Virus record (IMG/VR): IMGVR_UViG_3300022670_000305
Location: 1 to 35,599 of that record
DNA length: 35,599 nucleotides
From: a virus
Taxonomy: Duplodnaviria > Caudoviricetes
Strand: one strand, 5' to 3'
Shown here: in pieces, positions 5,396-12,309 of the stretch
How positions within the stretch are numbered: position 1 is the first letter of the stretch
Layout of the letters: each line of letters opens with the position of its first letter
Made by a program: the position numbers and the translations under genes
Notes under the pieces: generated by a model
Told to the model about the DNA's origin: nothing
Database searches by the model: none
Seen by the model: only the letters and a program-made list of their open reading frames with translations

Positions 5396-5827
5396 ATGAA
5401 AATGATAACAAAGTACAAAGCATTCGATAACACAGAGTATACAGATCAAAGTAAATGCATTGAACACGAAGCCAACTGCAAACAAGCTGACTTGATTATT
5501 AACAAACTTAAAAAGGTACCAAACAGTTGTGATTTTACCAACGGCGAAGGTTATGTTCAGCATGATTACAGTAATGTGCTAAGTGTTAGAAATGAATTTT
5601 TAGAATTTTGCAAGCGATACACAACATTTAAGTGGATACAGGAAACTATTGACGGTGGTTTTGATGTTGATGCGTCTTGGGCTGGTAGGGTAATTGGAGA
5701 AAGCGCGCCTAATTATATATCAAAAATGTGGTATAGGTTTTCATGTATAGATAAGCAGCAAAGAGAGTGGGGGCAACCTTATTACGCTGCAAATAAAGGC
5801 GACCGAAAAGAAGTTCAGCTTAATTAA
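5396..5827 (+). CDS. Hypothetical phage protein
   Basis: KYKAFDNTEYTDQSKCIEHE N-terminus; WGQPYYA C-terminus. Confidence 0.8.
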   Translation: MKMITKYKAFDNTEYTDQSKCIEHEANCKQADLIINKLKKVPNSCDFTNGEGYVQHDYSNVLSVRNEFLEFCKRYTTFKWIQETIDGGFDVDASWAGRVIGESAPNYISKMWYRFSCIDKQQREWGQPYYAANKGDRKEVQLN

Positions 5828-5859
5828 CCAACTAACAACGACAAGGATATAAAAGATGA
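5824..5859 (+). repeat. 36-bp exact direct repeat, copy 1 (stop codon-RBS-start codon linker)
   Basis: TTAACCAACTAACAACGACAAGGATATAAAAGATGA, identical at 7550-7585. Confidence 0.95.
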
Positions 5860-6050
5860 TCAATTCAATACTAGAACATGACGTTGGAATAACTGCGGTA
5901 TCTGTTATGGATGATTGTCATAAATATGGAGTAATTAATGGTTGTGATATTGATTGTCCAGTACTGATGCGTGGAGAGTGTGAATTAAAAGACGATGAAA
6001 ACAAAGAGTTATACCAAGAGTGTTTAGATCAACAAGGAGTAAACAAGTAA
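5856..6050 (+). CDS. Small Cys-rich hypothetical protein
   Basis: CHKYG...GCDIDCPVL..GEC; good RBS. Confidence 0.7.
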   Translation: MINSILEHDVGITAVSVMDDCHKYGVINGCDIDCPVLMRGECELKDDENKELYQECLDQQGVNK

Positions 6051-6214
6051 TGAGCAGTCAACAAGCATTAGAGGTAGTAGTTAAATTTAATGATCTACCA
6101 AATAAAAAAGAGAAAAAAATTATTGAAATGCAGTATTTGAAAAATGAAATAGGTAATCTTGAGTTTTTCCAATTAGCTCAGCGGTATATAAATAAACTTG
6201 AAAAACAGGAGTAA
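6050..6214 (+). CDS. Hypothetical protein
   Basis: TAATG coupling; AGGAG RBS. Confidence 0.6.
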   Translation: MSSQQALEVVVKFNDLPNKKEKKIIEMQYLKNEIGNLEFFQLAQRYINKLEKQE

Positions 6215-6226
6215 ATAAGAGATAAT
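6198..6226 (+). promoter_or_regulatory. Promoter for the ncRNA array
   Basis: TTGAAA-N17-GATAAT; predicted start near 6232, at the first hairpin. Confidence 0.6.
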
Positions 6227-6232
6227 ATCATT

Positions 6233-6374
6233 GCAGTTGTGAGAAGCTGCTTTGTAAATGGAATCAAACATTAAAGGTTATTTGTATTAGGTCTTAAGCG
6301 CTAAGAGGTTAAAACTTCTCACCGTTTGATTCCATCCTTGAATGTTTAGGGCTTAATACACATAGCCTTTTTTT
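6233..6374 (+). ncRNA. c4/CI-type antisense-attenuator leader RNA
   Basis: GTGAGAAG (6239-6246) and ATGGAATCAAAC (6258-6269) are complementary to CTTCTCAC (6315-6322) and GTTTGATTCCAT (6324-6335), which lie inside an approximately 26-bp stem ending in a T-run. Confidence 0.65.
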
Positions 6375-6444
6375 GTGTCTGTTAGTAGATTGTAGTCGTG
6401 AGTATTTACATATGGTAAACACGAAGCTTGCAAAAGCAGACACA
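6374..6444 (+). ncRNA. Structured RNA unit 2
   Basis: TGTGTCTGTT/AGCAGACACA outer stem; TCGTG/CACGA and TTTAC/GTAAA inner stems. Confidence 0.55.
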
Positions 6445-6477
6445 GCCCCTTTCAAAGCTTCTATAGTCTGTATTGTT

Positions 6478-6577
6478 CTGAGTATGGCGAAATTGGTAAA
6501 CGCAGCGGATAGCCGTGGTTGATCAAGTTATACGCGAGTAACTCAACATCTAGGTTCGAATCCTAGTGCTCAGACCA
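6478..6577 (+). tRNA. Non-canonical tRNA-Leu-like RNA with shrunken anticodon arm and oversized variable arm
   Basis: Acceptor CTGAGTA/TGCTCAG + ACCA; D arm GCG-AAATTGGTAAA-CGC; T arm CTAGG-TTCGAAT-CCTAG; anticodon arm only GCGG-ATAG-CCGT. Confidence 0.8.
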
Positions 6578-6595
6578 ATACAGACTTATCAAACT

Positions 6596-6830
6596 GTCGT
6601 TATAAACAATCCCCAAGCCTTAGGATGAGGCAGCATTTATGTAAGAGACCCGGGGGCCAAACTTCTAACTTAGCCGTGAAGTGGTGGATAAACGAATTAA
6701 ACGCTTGGTAAATTATTTTAATAAGGTTAGGAGATAACGGATTCTTCTTTAACAAAACCGATGAGCCTTAATAAATATTGCCCGTCCGATAAGACGATAA
6801 ACTGTGTTCGATAAATTGTTTATGTATGAC
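6596..6830 (+). ncRNA. Structured RNA unit 4, multibranched, about 235 nt
   Basis: Closing stem GTCGT-TATAAACAAT/ATTGTTTATG-T-ATGAC; inner CCCC/GGGG, GCCT/AGGC, TAAGGTT/AGCCTTA, CGTC/GACG. Confidence 0.6.
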
Positions 6831-6841
6831 TAGCTAATAAT

Positions 6842-6905
6842 AAATTAAATATAGGTCCAAGGGTTACCAAGTAACCGGGTCTAAGTGATAACTATAATTA
6901 AATTT
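6842..6905 (+). ncRNA. Structured RNA unit 5
   Basis: AT-rich outer stem (TATAG/CTATA) around GGTTAC-CAA-GTAACC. Confidence 0.4.
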
Positions 6906-6930
6906 CAACAACCAAACGGATTAAATAAAT

Positions 6931-7299
6931 ATGAAGCCAACAAAAGAAGAGAGAGCGAAAAAGATAAAAGAAAAGGGAGACGCTTACTATTCATTAAGAA
7001 ATAAGCTTGATGATATTCGTTGGCAACTAAAGAGTATAAATGATAGCAAGAAGCGTACACATGCGTTCAAGCTGCTTTATATCGCAATAGACTTGTCACT
7101 TGAACAAATCAGAAAAGACCATGATAGGTATGTAAGGCGAATTCGCAGAGCTGACAGCAACGAAGATGTAAAATTTATTCAAAAAGCGCTTAATCGTGAA
7201 AAGGCAAAAAACGCGAAGTTAGAAAATAAAATTGAAGAGGCTAAAACATCTAGCGGATTATTTATTGATTTTGTACGTGAAAAGATAGGTATGAAGTAA
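6931..7299 (+). CDS. Basic coiled-coil hypothetical protein
   Basis: ORF track. Confidence 0.75.
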   Translation: MKPTKEERAKKIKEKGDAYYSLRNKLDDIRWQLKSINDSKKRTHAFKLLYIAIDLSLEQIRKDHDRYVRRIRRADSNEDVKFIQKALNREKAKNAKLENKIEEAKTSSGLFIDFVREKIGMK

Positions 7300-7352
7300 C
7301 CGTGCCTAAGTGACAGCTTACTTTAAATTTAAATAACTAGAGAGTAAATAAA

Positions 7353-7553
7353 ATGTTTTGTAAACATGAATGGAAAGTTCTTAGTGAGACAACAACACAA
7401 AGCAAGTTTGAGTGCGCTTTAGGTGCTGTAAATGGTATTGCAGATGGTAAAATTGACATTCCTTCTCAAATGGCCTGCGCAGTCAGGAAATATATACAAA
7501 TAGTTTCTTGTGACAAATGCGGCAAATTAAAAAGATTTGTAGAAGATATTTAA
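7353..7553 (+). CDS. Small Zn-ribbon-like protein
   Basis: MFCKHEW...CDKCGK. Confidence 0.75.
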   Translation: MFCKHEWKVLSETTTQSKFECALGAVNGIADGKIDIPSQMACAVRKYIQIVSCDKCGKLKRFVEDI

Positions 7554-7585
7554 CCAACTAACAACGACAAGGATATAAAAGATGA
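7550..7585 (+). repeat. 36-bp exact direct repeat, copy 2
   Basis: Identical to 5824-5859. Confidence 0.95.
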
Positions 7586-7851
7586 AAGATGAAATTTGCA
7601 GGTGCGGAAGAAATAAACTACCGTTTGATGTTACATGCGATGATTGCCATTACTTTGATTTTGTAATACCTGCAAACTGCAAAGTTTTAGTTTTAGAGGC
7701 GTTAATTACTCTCGGCTATAAATATCAATGCAGATTTGATAAAAACGAATTCGTTCGAGACGGAAGTTGTGATCGTTATGTAGTCAGAATCACAGCGAAT
7801 CGAAAAGATGTAAGTGCGTTAACAGATTTACTGAACGATGTAATTAAATAA
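7582..7851 (+). CDS. Hypothetical protein with N-terminal CxC...CxxC
   Basis: ORF track; RBS inside the repeat. Confidence 0.7.
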   Translation: MKDEICRCGRNKLPFDVTCDDCHYFDFVIPANCKVLVLEALITLGYKYQCRFDKNEFVRDGSCDRYVVRITANRKDVSALTDLLNDVIK

Positions 7852-7879
7852 CTTTTATATACGCTATGGAGATAAGTAA

Positions 7880-8065
7880 ATGAGTAAATTAAAATCATGC
7901 CCTTTTTGCGGAAATAAAGCTGAATTACGCAGTGATAGTGATGAAATAACCATGGATGGGAAGTTGCCATTTTGGGTTTGCTGTACTCATTGTATGGGGT
8001 CTGCTGGTAGTCATTACGAAGAGTCTCAAGCTATTGAGTCGTGGAATGACAGGATTCAATTTTAA
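7880..8065 (+). CDS. Lar-family restriction alleviation protein
   Basis: LKSCPFCG...VCCTHC...AIESWN signature. Confidence 0.8.
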   Translation: MSKLKSCPFCGNKAELRSDSDEITMDGKLPFWVCCTHCMGSAGSHYEESQAIESWNDRIQF

Positions 8066-8202
8066 ATAGTCGAAGGTATGCAGTTAATTAAAGAAGAAGC
8101 TATAAGTTATTTACATGATCAGTGGACTAGTGCATATAAAGAATTTTACGAAAAACTGTAATTAATTTAACATCTATAACAAACTAAATAATGGTTAAGA
8201 AT

Positions 8203-8366
8203 ATGACTGCGATTAAAATGATTATAATTTTTATCACATGGATTATTGTATTTCCATTAATAGGGATTTTTTAGAAAAAATAGGGGTTGAAAGTAATGCT
8301 TATTTTGCGCTTTACGGGGTGTTATTTGCAGGCGCATCAAATGAAATAAACTCAAGAATTAAATAA
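8203..8366 (+). pseudogene. Small membrane protein interrupted at a T6 run
   Basis: One extra T at 8267-8272 would give a 54-aa ORF with two hydrophobic segments. Confidence 0.45.
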
Positions 8367-8383
8367 ACAAAGGTAGAATAGAG

Positions 8384-8599
8384 ATGATTTTAGCTATAAC
8401 AATTTATGTATTATTAGGTATTGCGCTATGTTATTACAATATACACATGGAATATAAAATAAATAGATTTTTTTACACTGTAAAGTTTGACGTATTTAAA
8501 GTAAGACCGTGCACATACTTTATGTTTGGGTTGTTGTGGCCGCTAGCTATTGATTTTTTAACGACTATAAAAGACTACACGCCAAAAGACGACGTTTAA
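8384..8599 (+). CDS. Small membrane protein
   Basis: Two hydrophobic segments; LLWPL motif. Confidence 0.7.
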   Translation: MILAITIYVLLGIALCYYNIHMEYKINRFFYTVKFDVFKVRPCTYFMFGLLWPLAIDFLTTIKDYTPKDDV

Positions 8600-8625
8600 C
8601 ATCACATATAACAGGAGATAACGAA

Positions 8626-8814
8626 ATGAAAATAAAAATACATATGAAAAGCGGTAAAACATTGGTTGAAAGTTACGTTAAGGATTTTACTGTTAAATAT
8701 AACAATAATGAAATAACAGGCCTTAATATTGATCTTTTTTGGTACGCAAGAAACAGGACGATATTTATGGCGGCATTAGACTTAGGTAATATTGAAGCAA
8801 TAACAATGCATTAA
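8626..8814 (+). CDS. Hypothetical protein
   Basis: MKIKIHMKSG...LGNIEAI; AGGAG RBS. Confidence 0.75.
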   Translation: MKIKIHMKSGKTLVESYVKDFTVKYNNNEITGLNIDLFWYARNRTIFMAALDLGNIEAITMH

Positions 8815-8846
8815 ACACTATATAGACCAAGAGGAAATACAAGCAT

Positions 8847-8877
8847 AAAAAAGCCGCAATCAATGCGGCATTCTTTT
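8847..8877. terminator. Bidirectional intrinsic terminator between convergent operons
   Basis: A6-GCCGCA-N5-TGCGGC-ATTCTTTT. Confidence 0.75.
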
Positions 8878-8889
8878 ATCTGGCAACAA

Positions 8890-9075
8890 CTAGCACTCTA
8901 AAGATTCAATACAAGCTGCACTACCTTGTTCGCATAAAGCTTTAGTTGATTTAGTTAACGCTTGCCACTCCCAAATAAAATATTTTTCATCATATTCAGA
9001 GCATTTAATATTCTGACAGCTAATCAAGCCGGCTTCAACAGGTAAAGAATTACATACATGGCATTTATTGATCAT
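8890..9075 (-). CDS. Small Cys-rich hypothetical protein
   Basis: CHVC...CQNIKC. Confidence 0.65.
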   Translation of the reverse strand: MINKCHVCNSLPVEAGLISCQNIKCSEYDEKYFIWEWQALTKSTKALCEQGSAACIESLEC

Positions 9076-9623
9076 TATGAATCACTCCCTGTAAATGATA
9101 CGCAGTTAATTTTACCGTTAAATATCGCGTTAAAGTTTTTTTCAGCACGTTCACGTGTTTGTGTTTGGTCGCCGTAAAACATTAAATTATCAATAGCCTT
9201 TTCTTTATCGCTACGGGTATCTATCGGTTTAATATCTGAAATATGGACTAACCTACTAATGGCTTTCGTTTTTGATTTGATCCATATTTGATTTTCATAA
9301 GTAAAAATAACCTCAAACAAATCATTAGAAAATTCAATCATCGCCCTTGCACTTGGTAACTCACCAGCATCACTCATCGCTTGAGTATAAACAGCCTTAC
9401 TATCTTGTTTCATATTCCCCCAGCCTTTATTGTTTAAGCAGTCTTCTACTTGTTGGTGGAAATCTCTAATCGTGCATATTATTTCAGGATGCCCATTTGA
9501 TACCACTAAACGATTATTATTGCTGCAAAGATTAATGTACATAGCCCCATGAAAGCTACCATAAATATTATTAAGATCACCTTTAAGCTCATTAACAACA
9601 TCAAGTACTGTTTTAGCTTTCAT
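9075..9623 (-). CDS. Hypothetical phage protein
   Basis: ORF track; coupled to both neighbours. Confidence 0.75.
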   Translation of the reverse strand: MKAKTVLDVVNELKGDLNNIYGSFHGAMYINLCSNNNRLVVSNGHPEIICTIRDFHQQVEDCLNNKGWGNMKQDSKAVYTQAMSDAGELPSARAMIEFSNDLFEVIFTYENQIWIKSKTKAISRLVHISDIKPIDTRSDKEKAIDNLMFYGDQTQTRERAEKNFNAIFNGKINCVSFTGSDS

Positions 9624-9918
9624 TGGATAGCTCCTTTAATAAAGCATCAGCATAATGAGTTCGCCACGCAAAGTATAAAGCTTGCTCGCCTTTAGGTGTA
9701 AAGCCGCAGTCAGCAACCGAAAAATCAGTACCTTCACGGTGCCATATAAAATCAGGATTATTTTCTTTTTCAGAAAATATAACATTAAACCAGCGAGGTA
9801 TATTGTCAGGTGCTTGTGCAGAAAAAACTTCACGTTTCGTTAATCCGCTATGAAAGTTTATTCCGTCATTAGTTTCTAGTACTGGGTATGCACATTCGTT
9901 TCCATTTTTATCACTCAT
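9613..9918 (-). CDS. Conserved phage hypothetical protein
   Basis: AYP...GLTKREVF...YADALL pattern. Confidence 0.8.
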   Translation of the reverse strand: MSDKNGNECAYPVLETNDGINFHSGLTKREVFSAQAPDNIPRWFNVIFSEKENNPDFIWHREGTDFSVADCGFTPKGEQALYFAWRTHYADALLKELSNES

Positions 9919-9978
9919 AATACTATCCTTAAATTAAATACATTAAACCATCTGTAATGCTTTCCACACATAGCTATT

Positions 9979-10473
9979 TTATTTTATTTTACACGTCAAC
10001 ACTAGGCCGAGAGAATCAAGTACCTGATCAACGTCTTTAAGCTTTGAATCCTTGCTGCCAATCCATACCCGACGCGTTCTTTCGTATGTTAAGCCGCACT
10101 TTTCAGCCATAGCCATAACGCCATTAATATTATTATCAATCGCCGCCTTTTGTACTATTGTTGCCAGTTCCTCACTTTCACTATCAATAAACGCAATCTG
10201 CTTTTTGAAATCAGGATTATCCTTTTTATTGTATTTCGGCTTAAGCGTACGTATTTTTTGTGACTCTATAACGTTAACTTCTGACTCTAAACACTCTATT
10301 AGGGTCACATTGTTGAAATTCTTATCTTTTAAGTGCGATTGAATTCTTGATTTTATGTTTCCTGACTTACCAACGTAAACAACAAGCCCAGAATCCCATA
10401 ACATATAAACGTACATCAAGTCTAAATCACAATTAATTGGCAAAAGGCTTATCGCTTCTTTTGAACGACTCAT
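9979..10473 (-). CDS. GIY-YIG nuclease domain fused to a C-terminal Cro-like HTH
   Basis: YVYML...VYVGKSGNIKSRIQSH...E...I..LKPKYN; C-terminus resembles the adjacent HTH gene. Confidence 0.8.
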   Translation of the reverse strand: MSRSKEAISLLPINCDLDLMYVYMLWDSGLVVYVGKSGNIKSRIQSHLKDKNFNNVTLIECLESEVNVIESQKIRTLKPKYNKKDNPDFKKQIAFIDSESEELATIVQKAAIDNNINGVMAMAEKCGLTYERTRRVWIGSKDSKLKDVDQVLDSLGLVLTCKIK

Positions 10474-10474
10474 T

Positions 10475-10678
10475 TTATTTCTCTCCTTTATCTATGAATT
10501 TAATTTTTAAATCTAAAGCTTCAAGCATTGCTTTCAAATCAACCAGCTTAATGCTTTCGTCACCATTCAAAAAGCCACTAACCTTGTAATAGGTTATGTC
10601 TGCTTTATCGACTAATTCCTTTATGGTGTCTATGTTGTTATTAATCATTGCTGTTTTAACTATTTTCGTTAAACTCAT
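10475..10678 (-). CDS. Cro/XRE-like HTH regulator
   Basis: IKELVDKADITYYKVSGFLNG...KLVDL; first gene after a divergent promoter region; alternative start 10696. Confidence 0.75.
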   Translation of the reverse strand: MSLTKIVKTAMINNNIDTIKELVDKADITYYKVSGFLNGDESIKLVDLKAMLEALDLKIKFIDKGEK

Positions 10679-10745
10679 GTCTTGGCCTTTCTTCATTTAA
10701 GTTGCACTAATAGTAAGTTAAATAAAGTAACCATGCAAGTTATTT

Positions 10746-10761
10746 AAGTTGATATCAACTT
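10746..10761. promoter_or_regulatory. Perfect 16-bp palindromic operator in the divergent intergenic region
   Basis: AAGTTGATATCAACTT; extra AAGTT half-sites nearby. Confidence 0.65.
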
Positions 10762-10845
10762 TATTTGATGAATAGCTTGCAATGAACAATCAGTGTGCTA
10801 GTATTTACCTCATCAAACGAAACAACAAATAAAGGATATACAGAA

Positions 10846-11172
10846 ATGAAACAAGAAATGCTTTTGAAATTAATAGAGTTACTAGTTGCATATGATGACA
10901 AGACAACATCATCATTATCAGGAACAGCACAAAAAGGCCGTTATATAGTGCTTGGTAATAGAGGTAATGTCGTTGTAGGTGATTTATTTATAACAGGATC
11001 TACTGGTCTTTTAAAGAATGCTAGCGTAATTCGCAGATGGGGAACAACAGGTGGGCTTGGAGAGTTAGCTTTAAAAGGTGCTACAGATAATACAAAATTA
11101 GATCCATGCGGAGAGTTTGAGTTTGAATTACTTACCACGTGCGGGATGATTCCAGTTACAAGTAGTCTGTAA
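10846..11172 (+). CDS. Conserved phage hypothetical protein (DUF6948-like), partner of the Gly-rich protein
   Basis: RGNVVVG...NASVIRRWGTTGGLGELA.KG....TKLD; AAGGA RBS at ATG 10846. Confidence 0.75.
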   Translation: MKQEMLLKLIELLVAYDDKTTSSLSGTAQKGRYIVLGNRGNVVVGDLFITGSTGLLKNASVIRRWGTTGGLGELALKGATDNTKLDPCGEFEFELLTTCGMIPVTSSL

Positions 11173-11468
11173 TGGAAAAGGAAAGCCGATTTAATATCGG
11201 CGACGGCGACGGCAACGGCAACGGCGACGGCTACGGCTACGGCGACGGCAACGGCAACGGCGACGGCTACGGCTACGGCGACGGCTACGGCTACGGCGAC
11301 GGCTACGGCTACGGCAACGGCGACGGCTACGGCTACGGCAACGGCGACGGCAACGGCAACGGCTACGGCGACGGCTACGGCTACGGCAACGGCCACGGCT
11401 ACGGCTACGGCAACGGCAACGGCCACGGCGACGGCAACGGCGACGGCAACGGCGACGGCAACGGCTAA
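11172..11468 (+). CDS. Gly-X (X=D/N/Y/H) repeat protein
   Basis: TAATG coupling to the upstream gene; 44 GX dipeptides. Confidence 0.8.
   Translation: MEKESRFNIGDGDGNGNGDGYGYGDGNGNGDGYGYGDGYGYGDGYGYGNGDGYGYGNGDGNGNGYGDGYGYGNGHGYGYGNGNGHGDGNGDGNGDGNG
11199..11465 (+). repeat. Tandem hexamer array GGC-NAC x44
   Basis: Directly visible; only position 4 of the hexamer varies. Confidence 0.97.
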
Positions 11469-11552
11469 AAACATACGCAATTAACTTAGCGAGTAACCGC
11501 ATAACCAACAAAGGAGAATAATATGAAACGACATCATAACTATGCAACTAAA

Positions 11553-11725
11553 CTATAAAATTAATAAATCGCCGGTCCGTGTATTGGTGTAATCATTGAT
11601 ACACCCATTAATCCCATTAAGTTGGGTTTTCTGGTGCAAGGAGTTAAGCAAGGTGCCAGTACCTATCCCGCCAACTTCTTTGAACAAAATGGCTAAGCTG
11701 AATAACTGGCAACTAATTTTAATAG
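11553..11725 (+). ncRNA. Structured RNA unit A
   Basis: Closing stems AAAATTA/TAATTTT and GCCGGT/ACTGGC; inner GGTGTA/TACACC, CCCA/TGGG, AAGGAGTT/AACTTCTT. Confidence 0.55.
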
Positions 11726-11951
11726 TCTTTATATATGAGTGAGCTAGCGGCGCTGAAAGTAGAAGCGCTAATCAGGTGAGCGAGAACTCGGATAGCACAG
11801 TTGGTATGCGGCAGTGGATAATACCCATATATCTCTGGTTCGAATCCAGATCGAGGTTACGAAAGTGATGAAGTAAAACGAGGCGTTATTGCACGCCTAT
11901 TGCCACCATAGCAGGATTAACGCCCTGCCTAGCTCATTCACTATATAAAGA
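11726..11951 (+). ncRNA. Structured RNA unit B containing a degenerate tRNA-like domain (11786-11857)
   Basis: About 22-bp closing stem TCTTTATATA-TGAGTGAGCTAG/CTAGCTCATTCA-C-TATATAAAGA; T arm TCTGG-TTCGAAT-CCAGA; D arm GCA-CAGTTGGTA-TGC; four more hairpins. Confidence 0.75.
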
Positions 11952-11972
11952 TTAAACAAAAAGGAATGTAAA

Positions 11973-12143
11973 ATGAAAAGCTTTGATGAGATTGTTAGCG
12001 ATCATTTAAAAATAATAACAACAGGCAAACAGCAGCAGCTTGAAATGCTGCTCAAAGAAATAATCACGTATAAATACGAAACCTTTAGCCAGCTTAAAGG
12101 TGCTATTGAAAATCATCTTGACTTGATAAAGTCTAAAAAATAA
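11973..12143 (+). CDS. Hypothetical protein, 56 aa
   Basis: Manual translation MKSFDEIVSDHLK...; AAGGA RBS. Confidence 0.65.
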   Translation: MKSFDEIVSDHLKIITTGKQQQLEMLLKEIITYKYETFSQLKGAIENHLDLIKSKK

Positions 12144-12162
12144 TTTAAGTGGAGTGATATAA

Positions 12163-12309
12163 ATGAGTGATAACAAACCTCATCAAGAATGCTTAGGATG
12201 CTGCCATATTTTTACTGGTGACGATATTTCAGAAGATGGATATTGTGATAGCTGTCAGTACGAATACGAAGCTAAACAGGATGCAAAGACAGATAATGAC
12301 GGACTTTAA
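12163..12309 (+). CDS. Small CxxC-CxxC protein, 48 aa
   Basis: MSDNKPHQECLGCC...YCDSCQ; GGAG RBS. Confidence 0.6.
   Translation: MSDNKPHQECLGCCHIFTGDDISEDGYCDSCQYEYEAKQDAKTDNDGL

Follow-up and report, generated by a model that had tools for sequence, protein, structure and literature searches.

The window, meaning the whole stretch of DNA that was analysed, is a linear virus record of 35.6 kb, estimated by CheckV to be 51% complete. It belongs to a tailed phage of lambdoid type, whose genes comprise O-like and P-like replication functions, Erf-like and Gam-like recombination functions, a terminase and head-tail proteins; the nearest kin of its capsid protein are Vibrio phages, at about 48% identity. 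The array at 6198-6905 sits in the rightward early region, flanked by short genes without an assigned function. A preliminary description had remarked on about 700 bp lacking a long ORF, and no + strand ORF of at least 50 aa was found within 6214-6931; the − strand of this interval has two listed ORFs of 51 aa each. On comparison with other phages, the array is recognised as a predicted member of a family of non-coding RNA operons, larger than first described, whose parts follow in the order sigma70-type promoter, leader of about 140 nt, slot A, linker, optional slot B, slot C and end hairpin (Table 1).

Table 1. Features of the array and of the second slot-B carrier (window positions)
Feature	Position	Strand	Details
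Sigma70-type promoter	6198..6226	+	-35 TTGAAA, 17 nt, -10 GATAAT; score 10/12; predicted start near 6233
Leader hairpin P0	6233..6250	+	predicted fold
Helix A	loop a 6239-6246 with a' 6315-6322	+	83% paired versus 77% permuted, 4/5000
Helix B	6259-6269 with 6324-6334	+	crosses helices A and D; 95% paired versus 75% permuted, 0/5000
Helix C	6266-6277 with 6336-6347	+	complementary, nearly invariant; 724/5000
Helix D	6276-6297 with 6346-6367, then U7 6368-6374	+	terminator-like or processing stem
Slot A	6375..6444	+	9-10-bp closing stem around hypervariable insert; from fold and homologues
Linker, helix E	6446..6462 with ~6241-6262	+	conserved; pairs back to leader 5' end
Slot B	6465..6586	+	leader/trailer stem around tRNA-shaped RNA; fold z -4.5; relatives
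tRNA-shaped RNA	6478..6577	+	acceptor 6478-6484/6567-6573, A6574, CCA 6575-6577, T arm 6550-6566
Short strand, helix F	6592..6597 with first bases of transcript, 6233-6238	+	-5.9 kcal/mol in window
Slot C	6596..6830	+	~235-nt multibranch RNA, family C1, 15-bp closing stem; 80-86% identity, four relatives
End hairpin and conserved end motif	6842..6905 (motif 6877-6889)	+	precedes RBS of next gene; weak
Second slot-B carrier stem	11724..11953	+	183-nt insert; z -5.0; conserved stem family in relatives

The sigma70-like promoter claimed ahead of the array was recovered, and a similar site lies ahead of 36/43 homologous arrays, as counted with a permissive pattern composed after the sequences were known. 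Promoter-like sites are no commoner in the region than expected by chance (48 observed versus 67.6 in shuffles). The preliminary description had also proposed five units, each closed end to end by pairing between its own 5' and 3' ends. Such stems are predicted for units 2, 3 and 4. Unit 1 (6233-6374) is built differently: its 5' end makes the local hairpin P0 and pairs with 6315-6322 and with the downstream linkers at 6446-6462 and 6592-6597, and its 3' end pairs with 6276-6297. For unit 5 the closing stem was predicted neither in the window nor in a consensus of six homologues, both of which gave the inner hairpin only. The crossing-helix nature of unit 1 had been overlooked, as had the constant-frame stems with swappable inserts and the identity of the array as the tRNA operon of a phage group.

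When the + strand was folded against dinucleotide shuffles at the unit boundaries first proposed, which had been picked after the fact, the z-scores were -4.7, -2.5, -4.5, -1.0 and -1.0 for units 1 to 5 and -5.0 for 11725-11953, so that units 1-3 and 11725-11953 stood out and units 4 and 5 did not. The − strand folded more weakly than the + strand in all six cases. When 592 fixed tiles of 120 nt were scanned blind, neither array had a tile in the top 25; since blind tiling does not single out the region, folding energy alone is weak evidence. Covariation among homologous phage loci was found for leader helices A, B and D by permutation tests, which take no account of relatedness among the sequences, and it constitutes the real support for structure, given post hoc boundaries and a negative blind scan. 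In an Rfam search of the window and 49 loci, tRNA alone exceeded its cut-off and the remaining modules had no match. Conservation and covariation thus support a promoter-driven, multi-unit structured RNA operon, as predicted from sequence, without an Rfam family, and we consider it very probable that the operon is a real structured RNA.

A total of 43 arrays were catalogued by hand from marine phage records. Re-finds (L191, L229, L231, L271, L303, L312, L316, L341 and others of the same contigs) were removed before counting, and L314 was dropped as a chance hit in coding sequence. A blastn search of 50,697 phage records gave a match to the first unit in phiV208, a Vibrio phage, where it lies in a gap that has the same plan and a different insert; elsewhere, short tRNA-arm hits only were returned. 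Pattern scans with the type-1 leader of the window yielded eight loci from IMG/VR and ten from metagenomes, two of them identical across the array, and scans with other modules led to arrays having a second leader type. A looser type-1 pattern matched at least 119 loci in viral contigs, with no new member among the matches listed, while in bacterial genome contigs none of 32 type-1 pattern hits was confirmed and plasmids gave no match. The cultured carriers comprise the Vibrio phages NF (two arrays), Seahorse, vB_VaM_H2, 1.054.O, 1.122.A and phiV208 and the Pseudoalteromonas phages HS5 and BS5. As the homologues were found with patterns drawn from the conserved parts, the finding that these parts are invariant is to some extent circular.

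Few proteins accompany the array. Ten carrier genomes have between 1 and 5 of 62 tested window proteins in common, and the window terminase has a detectable match in just 2/10 carriers (31% identity). The commonest protein families, the O-like initiator and one other cluster, occur in 8/11 genomes, and none occurs in more; by this measure no partner protein was found among the 11 carrier genomes. The RNA frame is more widely shared than any protein. That carriers share few proteins, with no family beyond 8/11 genomes, points to host machinery. The genes downstream of the array also vary between carrier phages. In Vibrio phage 1.013.O (L372, 41362-41513), a relative by its capsid, two tRNA genes were seen by eye without this leader.

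In the type-1 leader, strands a, b, c and d pair with a', b', c' and d' in the same order, so that the helices cross. The 19 type-1 leaders, collected with the leader 3' arm as the search pattern, were aligned with MAFFT: 91.3% of cells were paired and 13/41 pairs were altered on both sides, a result reached by 0/500 shuffles, with slid controls at 35-51%. In helix B both sides were altered in 6/10 pairs of this alignment. Helix D, tested in anchored registers, was 95.5% paired versus 87% when permuted (0/5000). The same anchored-register test gave no covariation for helix C in type-1 leaders (724/5000). Helix C overlaps helix B and the foot of helix D and is accordingly an alternative fold; by eye, a counterpart in unrelated sequence is present in the other leader types, the overlap with the foot of helix D recurs in three leader types, and one compensated pair was seen between L376 and L380. 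Helices A, B and D share no bases and could be present together in a knot-like fold.

The type-2 leader is unrelated to type 1 in sequence and has the same set of parts. Across 14 type-2 sequences (L311, L342 and L371 were missed by the pattern and excluded), cognate versus non-cognate pairing energies were -10.9 versus -4.6 kcal/mol for helix B, -7.1 versus -4.9 for helix A and -30.0 versus -21.7 for helix D, with 0/10000 for each. NF and 1.122.A have a third version of the leader, in which the order a-b-c-d was again seen by eye. Over all 43/43 arrays the helix D duplex lies between -25.6 and -36.7 kcal/mol, and in 42/43 it is followed by a T-run. The hairpin, with a stem of 22-27 bp, stands directly before the U-run as in an intrinsic terminator; a simple terminator scanner missed it because that scanner permits loops of 3-8 nt only. 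More leader variants were noted before a slot-C RNA in Vibrio phages 1.131.O (L382, 440-860) and K30 (L381, 440-890).

The 5' end of the transcript is also matched by two strands further downstream. For helix E, the pairing energy was -19.9 kcal/mol for cognate linkers, -16.9 for non-cognate and -11.2 for shuffled linkers (n=41, 0/10000). Because this linker lies downstream of slot A, its pairing with the 5' end implies that read-through past the U-run is under selection. For helix F, the start motif is present in most arrays.

Right after the U-run, canonical tRNAs were found in 5/43 arrays, with nine tRNA genes called by ARAGORN: Arg+Met, Trp, His, Trp+Arg+Gly and Met+Arg. Seahorse (three tRNAs), vB_VaM_H2 (two tRNAs), phiV208 and NF have a near-identical promoter and 5' hairpin with different slot content, the slot of phiV208 and NF being filled by an insert that is no tRNA and has two T-loop-like hairpins. 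Outside the five tRNA-bearing arrays and L331 and L377, from which slot A is absent, a closing stem of at least 5 bp was present in 33/36 non-tRNA cases versus 19.5% in shuffles, with a closing run of 3-14 bp. The enclosed inserts are mutually similar in only 4/630 pairs, just 2/36 have a strict T-arm, and folded alone they have a median z of -0.75 versus shuffles. In contigs of four sequencing runs (DNA or unlabelled, one possibly the source of the window) over 5400-12300, joints jump slot A (6378>6441, 6382>6437) and the second-array insert (11766-11771>11909 or 11920). Most of these joints have a short side of less than 30 nt, and they give a weak hint of related phages with other inserts. 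The inserts in slot A of L001 and in slot B of L052, L323 and L334 were each noted to have a pair of T-loop-like hairpins.

Slot B consists of a 20-25-bp stem, almost invariant in sequence across the arrays that have it, around inserts of 40-183 nt; it is missing from many arrays. At the core of the stem lie a 7-bp helix and, after it, an A, positioned like a tRNA acceptor where a T-arm precedes. The inserts are mutually similar in 7/351 pairs, the L342 carrier having been missed by the pattern used for these counts. A T-arm was retained in 12/27 slot-B inserts, where 0.1 was expected, and 15/27 were without one; under a looser rule, 15 inserts had a T-arm near the 3' stem, all in sense orientation, compared with 0 in 20 antisense rows. 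Anticodon-like loops were not enriched in the inserts beyond the shuffle range, and alone the inserts fold with a median z of -0.5 versus shuffles, orientations pooled.

The tRNA mimic claimed for the first array was borne out: 6478-6574 scores 39.3 bits against Rfam tRNA (cut-off 29), and ARAGORN gives no tRNA call for it. Its arms were read directly off the sequence and the Rfam alignment. In common with canonical tRNAs, 6478-6577 has a 7-bp acceptor, a discriminator, CCA, a D arm with GG and a T-arm with a TTCGA loop, as well as a long variable arm; in place of the 5-bp anticodon stem and 7-nt loop it has a 4-bp arm with a 4-nt loop (6505-6516). In the predicted fold of the window, the CCA is paired within the outer slot-B stem, which would hinder RNase P until that stem opens. 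In slot B of L007 and L019, near kin of this RNA carry a 7-nt loop where the anticodon would be, with the central triplets CAT and CGC.

A second array of the same design but unrelated sequence had been placed at 11553-11953. The design does recur in the window, though not with unrelated sequence, since the stem that closes 11724-11953 belongs to the conserved slot-B family seen in relatives. The part at 11553-11720 folds no better than chance (z -1.4), and the tRNA-like piece of the second array, 11787-11856, has no match in Rfam at an E-value of 5 or lower. Similar stand-alone slot-B carriers, with promoter-like sites of their own, are L319, L322, L333, L334, L337, L338, L343 and G001, and two carriers or arrays with unlike inserts exist in the window, in G001 and in the contig of L326/L333. 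The flanks of the carriers vary, and by eye their G-U wobbles suit the sense RNA strand. A MITE was rejected as their identity, the body being unlike in nearly every copy and the flanks not fixed. An 11-codon ORF with a strong RBS stands right before the second array (11524-11559), possibly a leader peptide or gene remnant.

Slot C exists as several families. In that of the window, 15/54 predicted pairs are compensated across 7 sequences. Slot-C-like pieces, of the type in L382/L381, were seen in dozens more cultured Vibrio phage records. At the end of the array, 1/13 pairs of the inner stem of the end hairpin is compensated (consensus of 6 homologues) and the end motif was found in 23/43 arrays. 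A partial second copy of the end motif follows the next gene in the window (7294-7337), and another follows an HNH gene in L037 (2491-2530); the latter suggests insertion or recombination at the motif.

Several known systems invite comparison. T4 species 1 and 2, RNA C/D and the T5 stable RNAs are structured non-tRNA RNAs in phage tRNA clusters; the maturation of the T4 and T5 stable RNAs is attributed to the tRNA enzymes of the host. The array family is similar in having structured non-tRNA RNAs in the same unit as tRNAs (by homology, 5/43 arrays), and differs in its constant frame, in inserts that change among phages and mostly include no true tRNA, and in the crossing-helix leader ahead of them. 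The window array itself has no true tRNA gene, and blastn gave no match to T4 or T5 except true tRNA pieces. Long imperfect stems punctuate the RNase III-processed T7 early RNA, the lambda N leader and rRNA processing stalks. Such stems also occur here within one predicted transcript; unlike the T7 and lambda transcripts, the products would be non-coding RNAs and the slot-A stems are too short for RNase III. Promoter-proximal structured leaders are known from lambda pR'/tR', HK022 put and attenuators. Like the lambda and HK022 examples, the present leader ends at a U-run before tRNA or early genes, but it folds differently, with three or four helices that cross one another; it exists in no fewer than three versions of unrelated sequence and has no Rfam match.

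YrlA, as characterised by Chen et al. (2014, PMC4201824), combines a tRNA-like domain with a long terminal stem and is found in phages. Slot B shows this combination too, yet identity with YrlA or Y RNAs was rejected. A TROVE (Ro60) gene was present in 0/10 relatives (91-100% complete) and 0/1 window record (51% complete), the GNCGAAN0-1G motif was present in 0/25 slot-B 5' arms, and the order of arms differs: in slot B the D arm precedes the T arm and the long stem extends the acceptor, whereas in YrlA the T and D arms are separated by an acceptor stem that is looped (PMC4201824). A CRISPR-like or guide array (Racr, TIGR) was rejected because 6198-6905 has no multi-copy repeat among the 20 largest families listed and no Rfam CRISPR repeat. 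GOLLD, ROOL and all other Rfam families save tRNA were likewise rejected, with no match above cut-off in the window and 49 loci. Likenesses to hammerhead, twister, pistol, boxA and the type I-E/I-F CRISPR repeat, judged by eye against consensus sequences, did not hold across homologues and gave no Rfam hit.

The operon is conserved and apparently undescribed. No description was found in the literature, although parts may be listed unnamed in further supplements of PMC10690425, in which Fremin et al. (2023) report 8,495 candidate RNAs from IMG/VR; the array motifs are absent from four supplements of that paper. No tRNAs are reported in the genome paper on NF, whose main text does not contain the words non-coding, noncoding or intergenic (PMC10196503). 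The Seahorse paper notes three tRNA genes, the word non-coding being absent from its main text (PMC7012835).

Near-identical stems around unrelated inserts indicate that the inserts have been exchanged. The simplest account is that the maturation signals of a tRNA operon were turned into general-purpose frames. As a whole, the reading we prefer, in which a phage tRNA-operon frame has swappable slots, is cut by host tRNA nucleases and delivers tRNA-shaped RNAs as decoys, is put forward tentatively, as nearly an even call; counted against it are the many inserts without tRNA features that fold weakly alone. The main rival, unlikely in our judgement but deserving serious attention, takes the inserts to be decayed or replaced tRNA genes without a function of their own; selection would maintain the promoter and leader, the stems and slot C, and whatever filler can fold would be tolerated. 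It would accommodate the weak folding of inserts alone, the absence of slot A from L331 and L377 and of slot B from many arrays, and the series that runs from intact tRNAs through tRNA-like RNAs with an odd anticodon arm (L007, L019, window) to an insert with a D-arm only (L043). Decay, however, leaves copies that have diverged from a single ancestor, whereas the near-identical stems enclose inserts of 40-183 nt that are unrelated; T-arms remain beside the acceptor-like stem; and the additional stand-alone carriers own promoter-like sites.

That the slot RNAs are trans-acting antisense regulators of host or phage mRNAs, like P1 C4 or P4 CI, with the inserts as targeting segments, appears improbable. 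Variable loops within constant stems would fit targeting, and C4 and CI RNAs, matured by RNase P, provide a precedent. Against this, the longest exact match of 20 inserts to their own phage genomes, outside 700 nt of the insert, averaged 10.95 nt versus 11.3 nt to other genomes, and no Rfam antisense family matches the window or loci.

With respect to processing, the canonical tRNAs in the slot of 5/43 arrays need excision to work, so host maturation enzymes probably act on other inserts too; the argument rests on established tRNA maturation. Helix D (22-27 bp) and slot B have stems of about two turns. RNase III suits only such long stems and not slot A, which makes tRNA-maturation enzymes likelier as the general route. 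It is therefore likely that the operon precursor is processed into pieces. A mainly cis-acting region, in which a long leader tunes termination or put-like processive antitermination for downstream early genes, seems quite improbable: it would explain the start at a promoter, the hairpin and U-run with a competing helix, and the same-strand genes that follow with no + strand terminator called in between, but it leaves the tRNAs, the tRNA-shaped inserts and the stand-alone slot-B carriers unexplained, and the downstream genes are unlike between phages. That the array folds into a single large, ornate RNA which stays uncut, in the manner of GOLLD or ROOL and with tolerant peripheral domains, is very unlikely, because although the long-range helices E and F bind modules to the 5' end, modules are freely gained, lost and swapped, true tRNAs in the slot require excision and there is no Rfam match.

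Under the preferred reading of an exchangeable tRNA-operon frame, host RNA polymerase would start near 6233, as suggested by the conserved promoter. Helices A, B and C would form first and hold the 5' arm of helix D while polymerase crosses the U-run, helix D forming later, so that the leader may be an attenuator or timer; covariation supports helices A, B and D, and the switching is conjectural. The 5' end would then pair with the linkers and close the domain, a pairing with support in the energies above and with a presumed timing. The slot RNAs would be freed by RNase E, RNase P and RNase III with 3' trimming. The exchange of inserts between phages, evident from the comparisons, probably proceeds by recombination in the near-identical stems through the phage's annealing proteins. 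In the least certain step, an RNA with elbow and acceptor but without an anticodon may bind or titrate tRNA-recognising proteins.

Our best guess for the tRNA-shaped inserts is thus that they may be decoys for host tRNA-binding defence enzymes. Decoys are favoured because the inserts often keep the elbow and acceptor shape and because anti-phage defence is commonly directed at tRNA. It is established that hosts defend themselves by attacking tRNA and that some phage tRNAs counteract this (PMC11464382, PMC12445682). AriB contacts the D-loop besides the anticodon arm according to passages of PMC12409363, and decoys are not mentioned in the passages of that paper that were searched. The PARIS (PMC11464382) and P2 OLD (PMC12445682) cases resemble the array in involving phage tRNA-type RNAs, a conflict with tRNA nucleases being proposed here. 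In the portions of these papers on counter-defence, however, the phage RNAs decode and replace a cleaved tRNA, whereas most array inserts cannot decode; an anticodon-less RNA cannot replace a cleaved tRNA in this way, which weakens the decoy role. A bolder form, which we regard as doubtful, is a cassette library of small RNAs in marine phages, in which the acceptor-like stems would serve as both maturation signals and recombination arms, tRNAs, mimics lacking an anticodon and other hairpins could be swapped, the RNAs would jam tRNA-targeting immunity, and the crossing helices of a new knot-like attenuator would delay the terminator hairpin; if true, it would be an RNA-only, diversified anti-defence system without a partner protein.

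The array bears on the long-standing question of why phages carry tRNAs together with unexplained stable RNAs. If the inserts are decoys, they would represent a protein-free class of counter-defence that annotation has overlooked. Between cultured phages, a shared promoter and frame enclose tRNAs in one case and non-tRNA inserts in the other, which makes function open to testing by swaps. Motifs without an Rfam match obtained from the comparison are the crossing-helix leader in several versions, the conserved carrier stem and the slot-C RNAs.

Elsewhere in the window, a 39-nt intergenic direct repeat (5821-5859 and 7547-7585, 97% identical), with an RBS and start codon at its end, may be a linker for module exchange. 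Two divergent HTH-like genes at 9979-10696 (−) lie upstream of the operon with the second array, and a homologue of 9979-10473 also adjoins the second carrier of G001. At 11172-11468 and 128-943, tandem DNA repeats encode low-complexity proteins with Gly-Asp/Asn/Tyr repeats and Cys-rich triplet repeats.
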